A stretch of 9,110 bases of DNA from a virus (lineage: Duplodnaviria > Heunggongvirae > Uroviricota > Caudoviricetes), in IMG/VR virus record IMGVR_UViG_2537562017_000014. One strand, 5' to 3'. Numbering within the stretch: the stretch's first letter is position 1; every line of letters starts with the position of its first letter. The position numbers were made by a program, and so were the translations under genes. The notes beneath the pieces were generated by a model, which made no database searches, had not been told where the DNA came from, and saw only the letters and a list, made by a program, of their open reading frames with translations. Shown one piece after another: positions 757 through 8,260 of the stretch.

Positions 757-1857
757 TTACTCTGTTTCTGCTATCCATTCCGGGATTTTTGCTTCAAGCT
801 CAAGCTGAGTGGTAAAGCCGCTGTTGTCAATGGTGTGCTCGGCTTTTGCAATAATCCAGTCCTGATTGTCAATGTCACTTTTGAAGCCTGTCACCGTGCC
901 ATGCATTTCGGGATAGAGTTCTGCACGTCCACACGCCAGCGTGATGGAGAACGCTGCGGCTCCGCGTTGTAGCTGCTGCCACTTTGCCGCCGCTGCACGT
1001 CTTGCTGCCTGCTCGTTCTGATAAGTCTTGCGTAACACAAACACGTTGCCTTCCGCGCCTTCCATATAGTCGCCTTCCCGGCTGCTGCTTTTCTCCTTTT
1101 TCGGTTTGCGGCGTTTCACGTTGACTTTTTTCTTTTTCCCGTAATTAAGATCAAGCCAGTAGGCGCGTACACCCGTATACGCCTCGCGGTCAGCAATGCG
1201 AAACTGATGGCGATCGCCGCTGCTGCGTGTGATGGCAAACGATGGCAATGGTTTTCCCTGTGCGTTCACGCCACCGCCTGGCATGATGAATAACAGATTA
1301 CCGCTTTTTACCGTGGTGATTGCGCCCAGCATTTCCGCCATGCGCGTAAGGAAGGACATGTCGCTTTCTTCGGTCTGGTCGGCGTGGTCGATTTCGATAT
1401 CCATCAGCATTTCGCTGATTTGCGGTTTCAGGCCGTACCGGTGAGCGATAGCAGATACCACGCGCTCAACGGTCACATCATGCCAGGACACTTCACGTTT
1501 AACGTTAAATTCATCCCGAAAATCTGCGCTTCTGGCTGAAACAGTCAGCCTGTCCGGCGGACCTTCGTGAGCGATTTCATCAACAATGTAAGTGCCTTTT
1601 TCTGTCAGCGGTTCTCCTTTCCAGCCAATGAGAACCGTCAGGCGCGCGCCCCGTGGCGGTAGCTGCAACTGACCATCCGCATCATCCAGCGTGATGGTGA
1701 GCTGGTCCGCCTCAAATCCCCGGTTGTCGGTCAGTGACAGGCTCATCAGGCGCTCGGCCACGCCTGACAGCGTTTTACCCTCCGCGAGAATATCAAAATC
1801 CGGCATTTTCACGGGGTCTGTGCCCTGACTGAGCAATTGCATGGTGGTATCGGTCAT
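757..1857 (-). CDS. P2 gpD-like tail protein (late control gene D family)
   Basis: Translation carries the gpD-type organisation: LMSLSLTDNRGFEADQL, SWHD, a Lys/Arg-rich linker KKKKVNVKRRKPKKEK, EGDY...NVFVLRKTY and WQQLQRG...FSITLACGR. Start chosen at the ATG on the complement of 1855-1857 (MTDTTMQLL) because a GGGAGGG Shine-Dalgarno sits 5 nt upstream. The track's longer ORF to 1989 has no comparable signal. Stop is TAA on the complement of 757-759. Confidence 0.85.
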   Translation of the reverse strand: MTDTTMQLLSQGTDPVKMPDFDILAEGKTLSGVAERLMSLSLTDNRGFEADQLTITLDDADGQLQLPPRGARLTVLIGWKGEPLTEKGTYIVDEIAHEGPPDRLTVSARSADFRDEFNVKREVSWHDVTVERVVSAIAHRYGLKPQISEMLMDIEIDHADQTEESDMSFLTRMAEMLGAITTVKSGNLLFIMPGGGVNAQGKPLPSFAITRSSGDRHQFRIADREAYTGVRAYWLDLNYGKKKKVNVKRRKPKKEKSSSREGDYMEGAEGNVFVLRKTYQNEQAARRAAAAKWQQLQRGAAAFSITLACGRAELYPEMHGTVTGFKSDIDNQDWIIAKAEHTIDNSGFTTQLELEAKIPEWIAETE

Positions 1858-2014
1858 CTGTTCCCTCCCTGTGCGGCATGGTCGCATGTGCGTGCGGAGG
1901 GGGTTACTGCTTTTTGTTGTCGCCGTGGCGGGAGAACGGCGCAGGGGTGAGATTACGCGCGTGGTGGGTGATGATTGTTGCCGAATCATTTAACGGATAC
2001 AAGGGGCTGAAGCT

Positions 2015-3193
2015 ATGAGTGAAACTCGTTTTCATGGTGCCCGTGTTACGGAAAATACCGACCTGGTAACAGCGATTAAGATGTTGATTCCAGGTTATCG
2101 GTATCGTGGCAACGGCGGATGATGCGGAGCGAGCTGTTCCCGCTGAACAAGCCCACACTGCTGACCCGCGTCAATGACGTGCTGGGAAAATGCGGACAAC
2201 GGGACGCTTTATCGTGCGCTTAAGGCCATCGCAGACCAGGTGAGCACAAAGGTGATCGTCGTTCGCGTGGCTGAACACAAAGAAGAAGACGGAAAGACGC
2301 AGGATCAACTGGTTATCGGTGGTTCTGAGGATGACGGCAGCTATACGGGGATGTATGCGCTGCTTGTTGCAGAGCAGGATGAAAGCATCGGATACCGTCC
2401 GCGTATTCTGGCCGCGCCGGAGCTGGACACGGAGGCGGTAACAAAATCCCTGTGCGTGATTGCGGGTAAACTGCGCGCGTTTGTGTATGCCTCATGTCAC
2501 GGCTGTAACACGATGGCTGAGGCGATTACCTACCGCCAGAAATTCAACGAACGTGAGGTGATGCTCTTATGGCCGGACTTCATCGCCTACAACCCGAAAA
2601 GTGGCAAAAACGAAACGTTCCCCGCGCCTGCCTATGCGTGCGGCCTTCGTGCGTACATTGACCATGAGCAGGGCTGGCACAAATCGCTGTCCAACGTTCC
2701 GGTTAAAAATGTGCTGGGGATGTCCAGGCATGTGTTCTGGTCGTTGCAGGCCGAAGACAGTGATGCCAACAGCCTCAACAACAAAGAAATCACGACCATT
2801 ATTCGTCGCAATGGGTTCCGCTTCTGGGGCAACCGCACACCGGAAACGAACGCCTACATCTTTGAGGTGTATACCCGAACCGCACAGGTGCTGGCTGATT
2901 CAATTGCGGAAGCGCAGTTTGAAACCATCGACAGTCCACTGACGCCTGCGAACGTGAAAGATGTTATCAGTGCCATCAGGGCAAAACTGGATTCACTGGT
3001 TACTGCCGGGAAACTGATTGGGGCGTCGTGCTGGTATGACGTGGTGGATAACGGCACCACGAATTTACGTCAGGGGCGCGTGCGTATTCGCTACAAATAT
3101 ACGCCTGTTCCCCCGCTGGAAGACATGGAGCTTTACCAGTCGTTTACTGATGAATTCTTTGGTCCCGCATTTGCGGTGCTGGGAGGTGCCTGA
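2015..3193 (+). pseudogene. P2 FI-like contractile tail sheath; 5' ~180 nt disrupted by three frame changes, reading frame intact from about 2192 to the stop
   Basis: ATG at 2015 with AAGGGG SD 8 nt upstream gives MSETRFHGARVTE, then a stop at 2120-2122. Sheath-like N-terminal motifs continue in other frames: VIGIVATADDAE (frame of 2094-2129), FPLNKPTLLT (from 2137), then GTLYRALKAIADQ in the long ORF 2174-3193. The long ORF has clear sheath motifs (WPDFIAYN, IRRNGFRFWGNRT, YKYTPVPPLED). Stop TGA at 3191-3193 overlaps the FII start. Confidence 0.75.
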
Positions 3194-3705
3194 TGGCTGT
3201 ACCAAAACATCTTCGCTTTTTTACGCTGTTTGTGGATGGTGAAAACGAAGTGGGTAAGGTGACGTCCGTCACTCTGCCTAAGCTGACGCGCAAAACCGAC
3301 AGCTACCGGGGTGGTGGCATGATGGGTGCGGTAAGTATTGATCTCGGTCTGGACGACTCCGCGCTTGATGCGAGCTTTGTCATGGGGGGCGCAGTTCGTG
3401 AGCTGTTCCTTAAGTATGGCGGCACGATTGACGGCACGCTGCTGCGTTTTGCGGGTGAATACTACACCGATGCAGAAAGCGACCTGTATGAAGTCGAAAT
3501 GCGCGGACGTGTGACGGAAATTGATATGGGGGAAGCCAAACAGGGCGAAGCCACATCACACACTTACGCCATTAAAAACACCTACTACAAGCTGAGTGTT
3601 AACGATCGCCCGTTGTGGGAGATTGACCTGCTGAACTTCATTTACCGGAAGGACGGCAAGGACATTGTGCCCGATCGCATCCGTTCCGCGCTTGGGCTTG
3701 GCTGA
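3193..3705 (+). CDS. P2 FII-like tail tube protein
   Basis: 170-aa ORF. ATG overlaps the FI stop (TGATG), suggesting translational coupling; GGGAGG SD 6 nt upstream. Translation MAVPKHLRFFTLFVDGEN...TLPKLTRKTDSYRGGGM matches the remembered P2 tube N-terminus pattern (PKLTRKTxxYRGGGM). Confidence 0.9.
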   Translation: MAVPKHLRFFTLFVDGENEVGKVTSVTLPKLTRKTDSYRGGGMMGAVSIDLGLDDSALDASFVMGGAVRELFLKYGGTIDGTLLRFAGEYYTDAESDLYEVEMRGRVTEIDMGEAKQGEATSHTYAIKNTYYKLSVNDRPLWEIDLLNFIYRKDGKDIVPDRIRSALGLG

Positions 3706-3759
3706 TAAGTAATATGCAGGCGGCGCAGTGCGTCGCCTCTGACTGAAAGGAGTTTCCTG

Positions 3760-4125
3760 ATGAAAGAGACGAAAAACATCGATACCGAAAACACGGTAGT
3801 TACTGACACTGTGAAAGAAACCAGTGAGCGTGGCGTAAAACTTACCCAACCAATTGAGCGAGGCGGCGAAAAAATCACGTATGTGGAGATCACCGGGGCT
3901 ATTGAGCAGGCTGGATCTCTGCGAGATTTGTCGCTGTCTGATGTGCTGAATCTGAAAGCGGAATCCATGTTTACGCTGCTGTCACGCGTGACATCACCGC
4001 GACTGGATGAAGTGACGATCAAAAAAATGGCATCCCGTGACTTTATTCAGTTATGTGTGGTTGCCGTAAATTTTTTGAGCGGTGCGGACTCTGGCGGGAA
4101 GAACGAACAGGCGACGGAAGCCTGA
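3760..4125 (+). CDS. gpE-like tail assembly chaperone (zero-frame product)
   Basis: ATG at 3760 with AAGGAG SD (3747-3752) 7 nt upstream. Sits between tube and tape measure as in P2/lambda G-GT. Contains the slippery heptamer near its 3' end. Confidence 0.8.
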   Translation: MKETKNIDTENTVVTDTVKETSERGVKLTQPIERGGEKITYVEITGAIEQAGSLRDLSLSDVLNLKAESMFTLLSRVTSPRLDEVTIKKMASRDFIQLCVVAVNFLSGADSGGKNEQATEA

Positions 4126-4289
4126 TCACGGTTGTGTGCTTTGAGCACATAGAAGACTTTGTGGCGGATATTGCCGCCATTTTTAACTGGTCGCCCGCCG
4201 AAATCTTCATGATGACGCCCGGCGAAGTGGTTAGCTGGCGTGAGCGGGCGGCACTTCGCAGCGGGAATGCAGACAATGAAGACTCTTGA
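3760..4289 (+). CDS. gpE+E' fusion chaperone produced by programmed -1 frameshift (3760-4077 joined to 4077-4289)
   Basis: Slippery heptamer T TTT TTG at 4071-4077 is positioned X.XXY.YYZ in the E frame (codons AAT TTT TTG). The -1 frame is open from there to TGA at 4287-4289 and encodes FEHIEDFVADIAAIFNWSPAEIFMMTPGEVVSWRERAALRSGNA (track ORF 4053-4289), the conserved E' extension. Confidence 0.65.
4071..4077 (+). other. Programmed -1 ribosomal frameshift slippery site (TTTTTTG) of the E/E' chaperone pair
   Basis: Heptamer read directly from the sequence and in the correct register with the upstream ORF; the -1 frame downstream is open and conserved-looking. Confidence 0.7.
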
Positions 4290-7082
4290 TATCCGGGTCG
4301 CTTTCAGCGCCGTTGACAGGCTGACCCGGCCTGCCGAAAACGCCCGCCGCCTGATGGGGCAGTTTGGTGACTCCATCCAGCGAACGCAGGGGGCGATCAA
4401 AAATCTCGAGCGTCAGGCGCGATCATTTGAGCGCGCCCGTGACGCTGTCAGTAAAGCGGATGCGGGCATCGTGAAAGCACGACGCCAGCTTAACGCCCTT
4501 AATCAGTTACAACGCACGGGTACAGTGCTCAGCGAAAAACAACAAAAGCTGATGCAGCAGTTAAGCACCCGGCTTGAACGCCTGAATGAATCGCGCACAC
4601 GGGAAATTCAGAAAATGCGGGAACTTGGCGGAGAACTGAAACGCCACGGCATTTCCCTGACAGGCAGCGATAACACCATCCAGCAGGCCATCAGACGCAC
4701 CGAACAGTACAACAACCAGCTTGAACGCGAACGGCAGGCGCTTGCGCGTGTAACGCGGGCGCGTGAGCGGTATTCGCGCGCGCAGGAAACCGCGGGAAAA
4801 CTGAAAACAGGTGGTGCGCTGGCAATTGGTGCGGCAGCGGCTGGCGGCTATGCTGCCGGGCGTTTTTTGCAGCCTGCGATCGGGTTCGGCAAAGAGATGT
4901 CCCGCGTTCAGGCACTGACGAGAATCGACAAAAACAGCCCGCAGTTTAAGGCGCTGCGTGAGCAGGCGTTAAAACTTGGCTCTGAAACACAGTTTACTGC
5001 GAGTGATGCCGCCAGTGGGCAGAGCTTTCTGGCAATGGCTGGTTTTACTCCGCAGGCCATTCAGGCCGCATTGCCCGGTGTTCTTAATATGGCGCTGGCA
5101 GGTGGCGTCGAACTCGGCGAGACGGCTGATATAGGCTCCAATATCCTCACACAGTTCAATCTGACAGCCGATCAAATGGACCGGGTTGGCGATACGCTGA
5201 CAGCGGCATTCACCCGGACCAATACTGATTTACGCGCGCTGGGCGAAACCATGAAGTATACCGGTCCGGTTGCCGCAAAACTTGGTATCAGTCTTGAAGA
5301 AGCGACGGCCATGGCCGGGATGCTTGCCAATAATGGTCTTCGCGGAAGCGATGCTGGTACGGCCATGCGCGCAAGTCTGTCCCGCCTAGCATCACCGCCA
5401 AAAGCTGCGGCTGATGCGCTGAAAGAGCTGGGGGTGTCAGTTGCTGACGCCAGAGGCAAAATGCGCCCGATGGAGGATGTGCTGCTTGATCTCTATAAGG
5501 CGACACAAAAATACGGACAGGTGGACCAGGTTTCCTTCTTCAAGGACATCGCCGGAGAAGAGGCGTTCGTTGGTTTGCAGACGCTTGTTGCGGCGGCTGG
5601 TTCAGGAGAGCTGCAAAAACTGACCAGAGAATTGCAGGGGGCAAGGGGAGAGGCCGATCGCGTCGCAAAAGTAATGGCCGATAATCTTGATGGGGACCTG
5701 AAAAATCTCGACAGCGCATGGGAAGGTCTTCGTATTCGCATCAGTGATCTGGTTGACGGTCCGCTGCGTTCTGTCACCAGTGGCTCACGCGGGTGCTTGA
5801 AAAAATCACCTCGCTGGCGCAGGCCCATCCGGTACTGACACGCCAGCTACTGATAGCAGGCGGTGCGTTGCTGGCAATGACTGCAACGATTGGCTCGTTG
5901 TCGCTGGTTATTGGGGTGCTTTACGGAAAGCTGGCCACCCTGCGTCTTGGTTTTGACATTCTTACCCGGTCAATGAATGTCGTCAGGGTGTTGCCTGCGC
6001 TGTGGGGAATGCTGACGGGTTCCGTTTCTTTGCTGGGAGGCGCTATCGGAGCGCTGTTCAGTCCGGTTGGTCTTATCGTGGCTGCGCTTGCCGGAGCTGC
6101 CGTTCTTATCTGGAAATACTGGGATCCCATCAGGGCATTTTTTGCCGGGGTGTTCAGCGGGATTATGGAAAGGCTGACCCCGTTGCGCGAAACCTTTGAA
6201 CGGTTTGGTCCTGTTTTTGACGCAATCGGAAGCGGGATCAGCCAGGTGTTTAACTGGTTTAAATCGCTGTTGTCACCGATGGAGTCCAGCAAGGAAACGC
6301 TGGATAAATGTACCAGTGCTGGCGAGATATTCGGTAACGTTCTTGGTGGTGCGTTACAACTTGTTCTGACACCTGCAAAAATGCTACTGGATACGCTGGC
6401 GTGGATACTTGAAAAACTTGGCGTCCTTCCGGATGAAGCGGAAAGGGCGCGCAAGAAAATCGAAGACGCACAGCGTGCGGCCATTCTTCAGGACAAGGTT
6501 GCCTTACTTCAGGGGGACCTGGCGAAAATCAATCCGCCGAAGCCTGTGGAAAATGGCAATGGCACCGGAGGTGATAAACCCAAAGACAACAAACCGCTCA
6601 CAGACAGCAATACCGGGACGCTACGCAGACTCAGCAAAATTGCTGATAACACAGGTAAGCTGGTTGATGAGACGAAAAAACGCATTGGCCCCGGCGATAT
6701 TGTCTTTAAGAACCTGCCCCGCGCACTTGCTGTTCGTGGGGAGTGGCAGGAGCGGAAGATTGCGCAGGTCAGTAAGCCTGCCCCCGCAATTAATATCACC
6801 CCCGTGGTCCCGGCTCCGCTGCCTCCGGCGCTGGTCCCTGTTGTTGCGGCCAGCTCCCGCCCGGTGGCGGAGGCCATACGATCTCCAGTGGCATCAGTTC
6901 CTGTAACTTCCCGTAACCGGGAGCCTGTTGCCTCCGGATTTGGTGGTGAAATTCATGTTCATCTGCATAACGTTGTTACGCAGAATCCCCGCGAACTGGC
7001 GAAACTGGTCGGTGAAATGGTCAGGGCAGAAATGGAACGGCGCGCTCGTGCCGGGCGTGGCAGTTTTTACGATAAAGATTGA
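4267..7082 (+). pseudogene. gpT-like tail tape measure protein, split into two overlapping ORFs by a frame change near 5757-5800
   Basis: Track ORFs 4240-5838 and 5793-7082 are in different frames and overlap by 45 nt. The first is coiled-coil/Ala-rich and the second has hydrophobic glycine-rich helices, both typical of tape measure proteins. The second frame opens only at 5757 and its apparent start is GTG. First in-frame ATG after the E' overlap is 4267 (alternative 4276). Confidence 0.7.
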
Positions 7083-7094
7083 GGAGTCATGGCC

Positions 7095-7583
7095 ATGATG
7101 ATGATCTACGGCATGTTTGTTTTTGAGCTGCGCACGTTGCCGCATCAGCAGTTACAGCAAAACAAAAGCTGGCGGCATGTGAAAAATGAACGCGTTAACC
7201 GTTCAGCAAGCTGGCAGTATATCGGTGCAGGTGATGATCGCATCGTTCTTTCTGGTGTGCTTTATCCTGAAATTACAGGTGGCGAAGTGTCGCTGTCGCT
7301 GCTGACCACGCAGGCGTATACAGGACGCCCCTGGCCTCTGATTGATAGTGTCGGGCAGATTTACGGCATGTATGTGCTGACTGAAACGAATACGACCCGT
7401 TCCGAGTTTGATCGCTACGGTAAGGCGAAAAAGATAGAATTTTCACTGACCCTTGAACGCTGTGATGAGGATTTGCGGGAGCGCCTGCAATCCTCATCAT
7501 TCAGCGATATGCTGTCCGGCTTCAAAGATAAGGTGACATCATCTCTTAACAGCGCGGCCAGTTCAGTTAAAGGGCTGTTCTGA
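7095..7583 (+). CDS. P2 gpU-like tail protein
   Basis: GAGGAG SD at 7081-7086 is 8 nt before the ATG at 7095 (MMMIYGMFVFEL); the ATG at 7089 is only 2 nt from the SD. Position directly after T. Stop TGA at 7581-7583. Confidence 0.85.
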   Translation: MMMIYGMFVFELRTLPHQQLQQNKSWRHVKNERVNRSASWQYIGAGDDRIVLSGVLYPEITGGEVSLSLLTTQAYTGRPWPLIDSVGQIYGMYVLTETNTTRSEFDRYGKAKKIEFSLTLERCDEDLRERLQSSSFSDMLSGFKDKVTSSLNSAASSVKGLF

Positions 7584-7594
7584 TTTAACACAAA

Positions 7595-7630
7595 AACCGC
7601 TAATGGCCAGATTAGCGGTTATTTTGTTTT
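7595..7630. terminator. Bidirectional rho-independent terminator shared by convergent gpU and invertase genes
   Basis: Perfect 10-bp stem AACCGCTAAT (7595-7604) / ATTAGCGGTT (7611-7620) with 6-nt loop GGCCAG. Followed on the plus strand by ATTTTGTTTT and on the minus strand by TTTTTGTGTT. Confidence 0.6.
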
Positions 7631-8206
7631 CTGACTCTTCTCTATTGTTCCGCTTGATTCTCCTGCGGGGTGGTAACGATAAATCGTCGATGTACCAATG
7701 CCGTAAATTATTGCCAGTTGTTTTCTGTCGTGACCGTTTTTAATCAGCCTTGCTATTTGCTCATGCTGTTCTTTTGTCAGCTTCGGTCGACGTCCGCCTG
7801 TGCGCCCCCGTGCGCGCGCTGCCGCCAGTCCGGCCAGTGTACGTTCAACAATTAATTCACGTTCCATTTCAGCCAGGGCACCCATCACGTGGAAGAAAAA
7901 ACGCCCCATTGGAGAAGATGTATCTATGCTGTCGGTCAGACTGCGAAAATTAATCCCTCGCTCCCGTAGTTCCCCGACGAGAGAAATCAGATGTTTCATG
8001 CTTCGCCCGAGGCGATCCAGTTTCCAGACAACCAGCGTGTCACCTTTTTGAAGACGCTTTAAAGCGCGTTTTAATCCCGGTCGGTCTGTCTTTGTCCCGC
8101 TTAATTTATCTTCAAATATTTGTTCACATCCTGCACAAACAAGAGCGTTTCGTTGCAGGTCTGTATTCTGGTCATTTGTTGATACCCTTACATAGCCAAT
8201 CAGCAC
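7619..8206 (-). CDS. Serine DNA invertase (Gin/Pin/Hin/Cin family resolvase-invertase)
   Basis: Translation LIGYVRVSTNDQNTDLQRNAL...DTLVVWKLDRLGRSMKHLI...FFFHVMGALAEMERELI has the catalytic Ser motif (VRVSTNDQ) and a C-terminal HTH (GTSTIYRY), as in Gin/Pin. The track start at 8224 is a TTG; I prefer the GTG on the complement of 8204-8206, with GGGAGA SD 6 nt upstream, which gives the family's usual MLIGYVRVS N-terminus. Confidence 0.9.
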   Translation of the reverse strand: MLIGYVRVSTNDQNTDLQRNALVCAGCEQIFEDKLSGTKTDRPGLKRALKRLQKGDTLVVWKLDRLGRSMKHLISLVGELRERGINFRSLTDSIDTSSPMGRFFFHVMGALAEMERELIVERTLAGLAAARARGRTGGRRPKLTKEQHEQIARLIKNGHDRKQLAIIYGIGTSTIYRYHPAGESSGTIEKSQKTK

Positions 8207-8260
8207 GCTGAATCTCCCGTCCAAAAGCGTAAATCATGCCATGCAGGTCAGAAACAGCCA

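Follow-up and report, generated by a model that had tools for sequence, protein, structure and literature searches.

A close counterpart of the locus analysed here is the E/E' gene pair of phage P2. PMC3091744, citing Christie 2002 and Xu 2004, reports that P2 obtains two proteins, a 91-aa E and a 142-aa E+E', through a -1 shift at TTTTTTG. For phage lambda, the work on G/GT (Levin et al. 1993; Xu, Hendrix & Duda 2004, 2013, 2014) is summarised in PMC5009743, according to which the shorter lambda product forms a coat on the tape measure while the tail shaft protein is brought in by the extension, the two products being made at a ratio of about 30:1. Sites homologous to that of P2 are annotated in Wphi, in 186 (orf51/orf52) and in the Burkholderia phages KS5, KS14, KL3 and Milagro, and the frameshift itself is already entered in the records of Wphi, 186 and Milagro.

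The window, by which we mean the whole stretch of DNA that was analysed (9,110 nucleotides, 9.1 kb), corresponds to the tail module of an E. coli prophage that is P2-like and of the phage P88 type (Peduoviridae, genus Xuanwuvirus). At 99% or better, the window as a whole had no full-length match in any complete E. coli genome. Positions 3193-4400 are 100% identical to prophages of E. coli H22 and AH20J067, in which the neighbouring genes are intact, and about 99% identical to the isolated phages PhiR44_2, 500465-2 and P88. The order of the genes for sheath, tube, E, E', T and U is that of P2 (Table 1). The baseplate hub gene D, which probably begins in reality at ATG 1857, is located upstream of the sheath gene on the opposite strand and not after U, and U is followed by a DNA invertase gene. 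Because P88 is arranged likewise, this placement of D and the invertase is, as judged by gene order, native to the genus and not a rearrangement of the window.

We propose that the feature between the tube gene and T is an E/E+E' programmed -1 ribosomal frameshift in a P2-like (P88-like, Xuanwuvirus) tail module, a reading to which the sequence comparisons described below give a probability of roughly 0.93. On this proposal, all ribosomes would start at ATG 3760, and the majority would stop at TGA 4123-4125 to give a 121-aa E. A minority would slip back by one base on A_AAU_UUU_UUG, where the P- and A-site tRNAs could re-pair on AAA-UUU or UUU-UUU, and would then read the -1 frame as far as TGA 4287-4289, to give a 176-aa E+E' that consists of the E domain and a 70-aa E'. 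By analogy with lambda and P2, we infer that the two proteins would play the chaperone roles described there for T and FII: the 121-aa E, present in many copies, would form a coat on the tape-measure protein T, and the 176-aa E+E', which would be rare, would recruit the tube protein FII by means of its extra domain. The ratio of the products would be fixed at translation, and it is this ratio that would matter for tail assembly. The shift presumably does occur in this element, given the layout of the two frames and their conservation.

Table 1 Features of the window. Positions are numbered from the first nucleotide of the window.
Feature	Position	Strand	Basis and remarks
D, baseplate hub gene	757-1989	-	ORF list and Pfam; intact
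Sheath gene, open frame	2174-3193		ORF list and Pfam
Tube gene FII	3193-3705		PF04985, E=7.5e-47
Shine-Dalgarno sequence GGAG	3749-3752	+	Read from the sequence; 7 nt 5' of the E start codon; common to E and E+E'
Gene E, zero-frame tail assembly chaperone, 121 aa	3760-4125	+	ATG 3760; stop TGA 4123-4125
TGA of the -1 frame	4038-4040	+	Translation; closes the -1 frame upstream
A_AAT_TTT, upstream heptamer	4068-4074	+	Overlaps T_TTT_TTG; in register with E
T_TTT_TTG, P2-type heptamer	4071-4077	+	In register with E (codons TTT 4072-4074, TTG 4075-4077)
E' extension, 70 codons in the -1 frame	4077-4289	+	Stop TGA 4287-4289
Zero-frame tail of E, SGADSGGKNEQATEA then stop	4078-4125	+	Overlaps with the beginning of E'
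51-aa 'GpE family phage tail protein' ORF of annotation pipelines	4134-4289	+	GTG start; identical or near-identical records
E' conserved core IEDFVADIAAIFNWSPAEIFMMTPGEVVSWRERAAL	4161-4268	+	Extension residues 29-64; PF06528 positions 1-36 of 37
Tape-measure gene T	From ATG 4276		PF10145; start from annotated genome; split near 5790
E'/T overlap	4276-4289	+	E' stops 14 nt inside T
U	7089-7583		ORF list and Pfam
DNA invertase, Hin/Gin-type, after U	7619-8224	-	ORF list and Pfam

The protein encoded by gene E is related to P2 gpE. BLASTP aligns it end to end with the P2 protein (residues 1-85; 31% identity, E=3e-11), and the alignment is colinear up to the slip site, where it terminates ('...VNFL' in the window, '...VGFL' in P2). 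E also matches PHROG 103 'tail protein' (E=2e-35) and is annotated as 'tail protein' in identical E. coli prophages; the exact protein occurs in at least 1000 public contigs. Its match to the Pfam family PF10109 Phage_TAC_7 is sub-threshold, at 17.2 bits for a cutoff of 25. No model matching E, E' or the fusion was found in NCBIfam, and a sequence search of the PDB found no relative with a solved structure.

The spacer between the tube gene and E contains a GC-rich 9-bp hairpin at 3718-3738, AGGCGGCGC-AGU-GCGUCGCCU, which is part of a -18 kcal/mol fold and has no U-tract. Its position is that of the annotated partial terminator tI in phage 186, and as a result of the hairpin E, T, U and the downstream genes might be transcribed less than the sheath and tube genes.

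Upstream of the slip site the -1 frame opens at 4041, which is 27 nt before the slippery decamer described below and 30 nt before TTTTTTG. The original prediction gave the second ORF as 4053-4289; an ATG-delimited ORF with these ends does exist, but the frame itself is already open from 4041. At the other end, the start of T was transferred to window position 4276 from the T coding sequence that starts at 6084 in an annotated genome (locus L001) identical over this segment. An E'/T overlap of the same kind is present in P2, Wphi and 186.

The -1 extension has matches in two collections, Pfam PF06528 'Phage P2 GpE' with 46.9 bits (cutoff 23; E=1.9e-12) and PHROG 1756 with E=2e-38. The predicted fusion protein of 176 aa would have the junction ...AVNFL|ERCGLW..., or ...AVNFF|ERCGLW... 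if the shift took place on the upstream heptamer. The extension aligns with those of the P2, 186, Burkholderia, Ralstonia, Shewanella, Mannheimia and Zymomonas elements, and in an alignment of 13 phages there are six invariant columns (D, D, E, W, A and R). When the conceptual fusion was used as a tblastn query, the E' core turned up in 288 phage records, and in closer relatives the E and E' halves were recovered as two pieces in different frames. These results bear out the earlier expectation that the -1 frame encodes a conserved E' ending inside the start of T, and the proposed comparison with P2 gave the predicted outcome in both halves, gpE aligning with E and P2 E' with the extension, with the slip at the same '...FL' position.

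At 4161-4180, in the best conserved stretch of E' (codons for VADIAAIF), there is a hairpin that resembles a terminator and has TTTTT after it. This hairpin was considered as a terminator and rejected, being broken in P88 and absent in other relatives, and is probably a coincidence of codon choice for the ADIAAIF motif.

As originally predicted, TTTTTTG is in register with E when counted from ATG 3760, its codons being TTT at 4072 and TTG at 4075. That description of the slippery signal was correct as far as it went, but it overlooked a second in-register heptamer, A_AAT_TTT. The slippery element is in fact a decamer of 10 nt, A_AAT_TTT_TTG (4068-4077), which is made up of two overlapping heptamers, both in register. 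The corresponding codons of the window are AAATTTTTTG, for which the synonymous non-slippery counterpart would be AAC TTC CTG. A run of seven A at 4021-4027 was also considered as a slip site and rejected: it is out of the X_XXY_YYZ register, and ribosomes slipping back by one base there would run into the TGA at 4038-4040.

The abundance of the heptamer was dropped as evidence. The window has five copies of TTTTTTG against 3.2 expected, and one of these, at 4863-4869 inside T, is also a T_TTT_TTG in register. It serves as a control, the -1 frame closing after 26 codons, and is taken as a chance occurrence. Counting this copy, in-register sequences of the form X_XXY_YYZ occur six times in the approximately 2240 other codons, which corresponds to about 0.08 expected in the 28-codon E/E' overlap. 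It is by its position and its conservation across relatives, and not by the number of heptamers, that the site at 4071-4077 is non-random.

This conservation was examined in two sets of loci. The first is a reference set of 18, comprising the window, P88 and 16 further loci that range from P2, Wphi and 186 to Burkholderia, Ralstonia, Acidovorax, Shewanella and Mannheimia phages and a Zymomonas element. An in-register slippery heptamer is present where both frames are open in all 18 of these Peduoviridae loci. It is TTTTTTG in 13, with T_TTT_TTG at the homologous position in P2, Wphi, 186 and 10 other reference phages, and TTTTTTT, GGGAAAG (in Mannheimia), CCCTTTC or AAATTTT in the rest. When the conceptual fusions are placed in one multiple alignment, their junctions fall in a single column. 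The second set was obtained by scanning IMG/VR with the E' alignment, which gave 80 loci, 73 of them non-redundant. Here a heptamer is found in the E/E' overlap of 71 of the 73: TTTTTTG in 46, CCCTTTC in 14, AAATTTT only in six and TTTTTTA in five. The site may therefore be described, as the original prediction had it, as an intact site of the P2 E/E' type, lying in the same column as those of P2, 186 and Wphi.

The two loci without a heptamer are also the only ones that emerged when homologs were searched for an E' in the zero frame, an arrangement that would have spoken against a frameshift. Locus L040 has a run of seven T (its positions 685-691), which puts E' in the zero frame, and L043 has a run of eight (684-691), which puts E' in the +1 frame. 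Both are near-identical to a contig with the canonical six T (L042), and L043 has a second frame error inside E; because of this, the run lengths in both are most likely homopolymer sequencing errors. If the T7 form of L040 were real, it would be a natural allele making E+E' only.

The question of where translation of the -1 frame starts can be approached from the pattern of variation. Variable sites were counted by codon position in an alignment of 19 distinct close relatives. In the region read as E only (3826-4040), 24 of the 39 variable sites fall at E-frame position 3 and 6 at -1-frame position 3, and immediately before the slip site (4041-4076) the corresponding figures are 6 and 2 of 10. 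Between the slip site and the annotated GTG (4077-4133) they become 5 and 9 of 15, with one further site at -1-frame position 2, and in the annotated E' ORF (4134-4275) 3 and 11 of 15. The test in the short overlap thus has small counts, with 15 variable sites and a chi-square p of 0.04; a smaller set of relatives gave the same codon-position pattern. Because variable sites move to -1-frame position 3 from 4077, the switch in constraint, as read from codon positions, coincides with the heptamer and not with the annotated GTG at 4134. In terms of selection, the alignment shows purifying selection on the -1 frame beginning at the slip site. In the zero-frame tail of E (4078-4125), changes among relatives are mostly at E-frame position 2, which is -1-frame position 3; by the same measure, the zero-frame tail is the less constrained of the two readings there.

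These observations bear on the alternative that E' is a separate gene with a start of its own, either GTG 4134, as annotated by PGAP, or ATG 4053, and that its overlap with E is incidental. Public records do annotate a 51-aa 'GpE family phage tail protein', and there is an ATG-started ORF at 4053-4289. However, inspection of the sequence found no Shine-Dalgarno at a usable distance before 4053 or 4134. Moreover, the 19 codons that separate 4134 from the slip site are conserved in the -1 frame: their variation is at the -1-frame third position, and they include the motif W..ER.GDG..I, which is common to Klebsiella and Serratia phages. The annotated starts vary from phage to phage, whereas the position of the heptamer is constant, and PMC3091744 reports the P2 product as a frameshift fusion. 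A separate E' gene is on these grounds very unlikely, and from the codon-position pattern the 51-aa ORF at 4134 is judged to stand in for the frameshift product in the annotation. The conservation of the heptamer, together with the -1-frame constraint from 4077, instead agrees with the original view that the two overlapping ORFs are one unit rather than an error. A lack of conservation in the -1 frame would have counted against that view, and here the PF06528 match, the six invariant columns and the variation at -1-frame position 3 all point in the same direction.

It had also been suggested that the frameshift signal survived despite frame damage elsewhere in the window. There is apparent damage in two genes. 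Six bases that are present in AH20J067 and P88 are missing from the sheath gene between about 2080 and 2204, each as a 1-base deletion; as they total 6 nt, the frame is restored after the last. These deletions fall at six of the seven positions at which AH20J067 and P88 differ in 1990-2270, the alleles at the six sites being T, T, T, G, A and T in AH20J067 and C, C, C, A, G and G in P88. Because the deletions match the sites at which the relatives differ, which would be very unlikely for independent mutations, they look like a consensus or assembly artefact derived from two mixed alleles and not like pseudogenisation. In T, one G is missing near 5778 (GTCAC-CAGTGG, compared with GTCACGCAGTGG in two relatives), which results in two ORFs, 4276-5838 and 5793-7082. 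The damaged 30-mers of T and of the sheath gene are absent from the GTDB species representative genomes. An extra base at 1860 is non-coding, lying 3 nt 5' of the D start codon, and D itself is intact. Survival of the site in a damaged neighbourhood is therefore not established.

The same observations decide how seriously to take the alternative that the site is an inert relic of a decaying prophage, whose sheath and tape-measure genes are broken and in which the slip site is intact merely for lack of time. In its favour, the sheath frame is broken at about 2080-2204 and T is split by the 1-base deletion near 5778, in comparison with close relatives. Six sheath deletions at six of seven differing sites are, however, what would be expected from a consensus that drops ambiguous bases, and the segment 3193-4400 is shared without change with prophages that have intact neighbours and nearly so with isolated phages. 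We regard a relic as extremely unlikely, and in any case it would bear on current expression only and not on the identity of the element. Because neighbouring genes in the window carry frame errors, it might be that the source element is not expressed at all.

The identity of the heptamer differs among close relatives. The sister Xuanwuvirus clade (Citrobacter phage Shae_phiSM, P88_4B11, Escherichia phage 520873 and loci L029-L038) has AAATTTTATG and keeps A_AAT_TTT alone. Throughout the genus it is the upstream A_AAT_TTT, and not TTTTTTG, that is retained. A parallel change is seen in the Klebsiella clade, where CCCTTTTTTG has become CCCTTTCTTG and C_CCT_TTC, one codon upstream, alone remains. 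The remaining alternative, that RNA polymerase slips on the T6 run and adds one U to the mRNA, so that no ribosomal shift is involved, is hardly credible: a homopolymer is present, and the T6, T7 and T8 forms in public contigs indicate a run that is slippage-prone for polymerases of some kind, but T6 is a short run for productive transcriptional slippage, the sister clade has T4 only, both it and the Klebsiella clade keep an in-register heptamer, and with GGGAAAG in Mannheimia it is the X_XXY_YYZ register that is conserved and not the length of the run.

Within the preferred reading, a ribosomal -1 shift, it is of interest which of the two overlapping heptamers is used. Sharma et al. 2014 (PMC4066793) count H_HH.U_UU.Y, which covers A_AAU_UUU and C_CCU_UUC, as one of the most efficient -1 motifs in E. 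coli. Their list of such motifs does not include U_UUU_UUG, which they name for a eukaryotic system only, and because of this absence the efficiency of shifting at U_UUU_UUG may be low. Given the retention of the upstream heptamer across the clade and the efficiency class to which it belongs, A_AAU_UUU may carry part or most of the shifting here. We therefore raise, tentatively and at somewhat less than even odds, the hypothesis that the operative slip site in this lineage is A_AAU_UUU, or both heptamers of the tandem decamer, rather than the P2 heptamer. If this is true, the slip site would turn over between neighbouring codons in the Peduoviridae (T_TTT_TTG, A_AAT_TTT, C_CCT_TTC and T_TTT_TTA), and the turnover would perhaps re-tune the E:E+E' ratio to the tRNA pool of the host. 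The window would then be a two-site intermediate, with 176-aa products that differ in one residue at the junction (NFF|ER or NFL|ER).

Possible RNA stimulators of the shift were sought on both sides of the site. Downstream, the segments 4078-4160 and 4078-4125 fold no better than shuffled sequences (z = -0.34 and +0.65, respectively), and RNAalifold run on eight relatives found no consensus pairs after the site. Upstream, no Shine-Dalgarno-like stimulator was found on inspection of the sequence. In sites of the dnaX/IS type, the heptamer is followed at a distance of 5-9 nt by a hairpin or pseudoknot and/or preceded by a Shine-Dalgarno-like stimulator, and neither was seen here. For P2 and three Burkholderia phages, PMC3091744 reports no downstream structure either. 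Since no stimulator was found on either side, the site is, by analogy, of the unstimulated, low-level type represented by P2 and lambda G/GT.

In the P2/186 clade (Wphi, P2 and 186, loci L003 to L005, and loci L085-L096), the coding region of E' has a potential long-range stem of 9-10 bp, CUGAUGGCGG...CCGCCAUCAG, about 50 nt past the slip site. Folds over 45 nt give raw energies of -20 to -25 kcal/mol, and the stem is absent or weak in the clade of the window. It is too distant from the heptamer for a classical stimulator.

The device described here is thus a known one, at an orthologous position in the same phage family. What is mildly new is that the fusion is missing from public protein collections, the 176-aa frameshift product being absent from a collection of 15 billion proteins, and that the slip site has moved by one codon in some lineages. 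There is also some value for annotation: this is a very common family of E. coli prophages, in which E' is filed as a separate 51-aa 'GpE family' gene, and recognition of the site should prevent the overlap from being mistaken for an error or a pseudogene. In addition, the lineage-specific heptamer swaps provide a small natural series on the choice of slippery site in enterobacteria.

Comparison can be made with three known systems. The sister Xuanwuvirus phages and the Klebsiella Reipivirus clade (Kp4847-1) have orthologous E and E', with 55-91% identity in E', and an equal overlap layout; in them the T6 run is interrupted and one heptamer is left, whereas the window has both. Lambda G/GT, in the summary cited at the outset, shares the logic of two products from one start and a low-level -1 shift near the end of a gene that lies between the major tail and tape-measure genes. 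Lambda has a non-contractile tail and a G_GGA_AAG site, and the likeness drawn here is one of logic; the partner of the extension in the present case would be the P2-type tube protein FII.

The third system is P2. As in P2, the site is located between the tube gene FII and the tape-measure gene T, the -1 frame becomes open shortly before the site, E' reaches a few codons into T, and a downstream stimulatory structure was not found. E (31% identity) and E' (PF06528) are homologous to those of P2, and the two T_TTT_TTG heptamers fall in one alignment column ('...FL'). The E of the window is longer than that of P2, at 121 aa compared with 91, with an N-terminal extension of about 22 aa; its E' has 70 codons compared with 57, with an inserted W..ER.GDG..I segment; and the zero-frame tail after the site has 15 codons compared with 6 in P2. 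The module of the window is also rearranged relative to P2 in the manner of P88, with D on the opposite strand 5' of the sheath gene and the DNA invertase after U, and at the slip site itself it has the extra, overlapping A_AAT_TTT that extends the P2 heptamer to a decamer.
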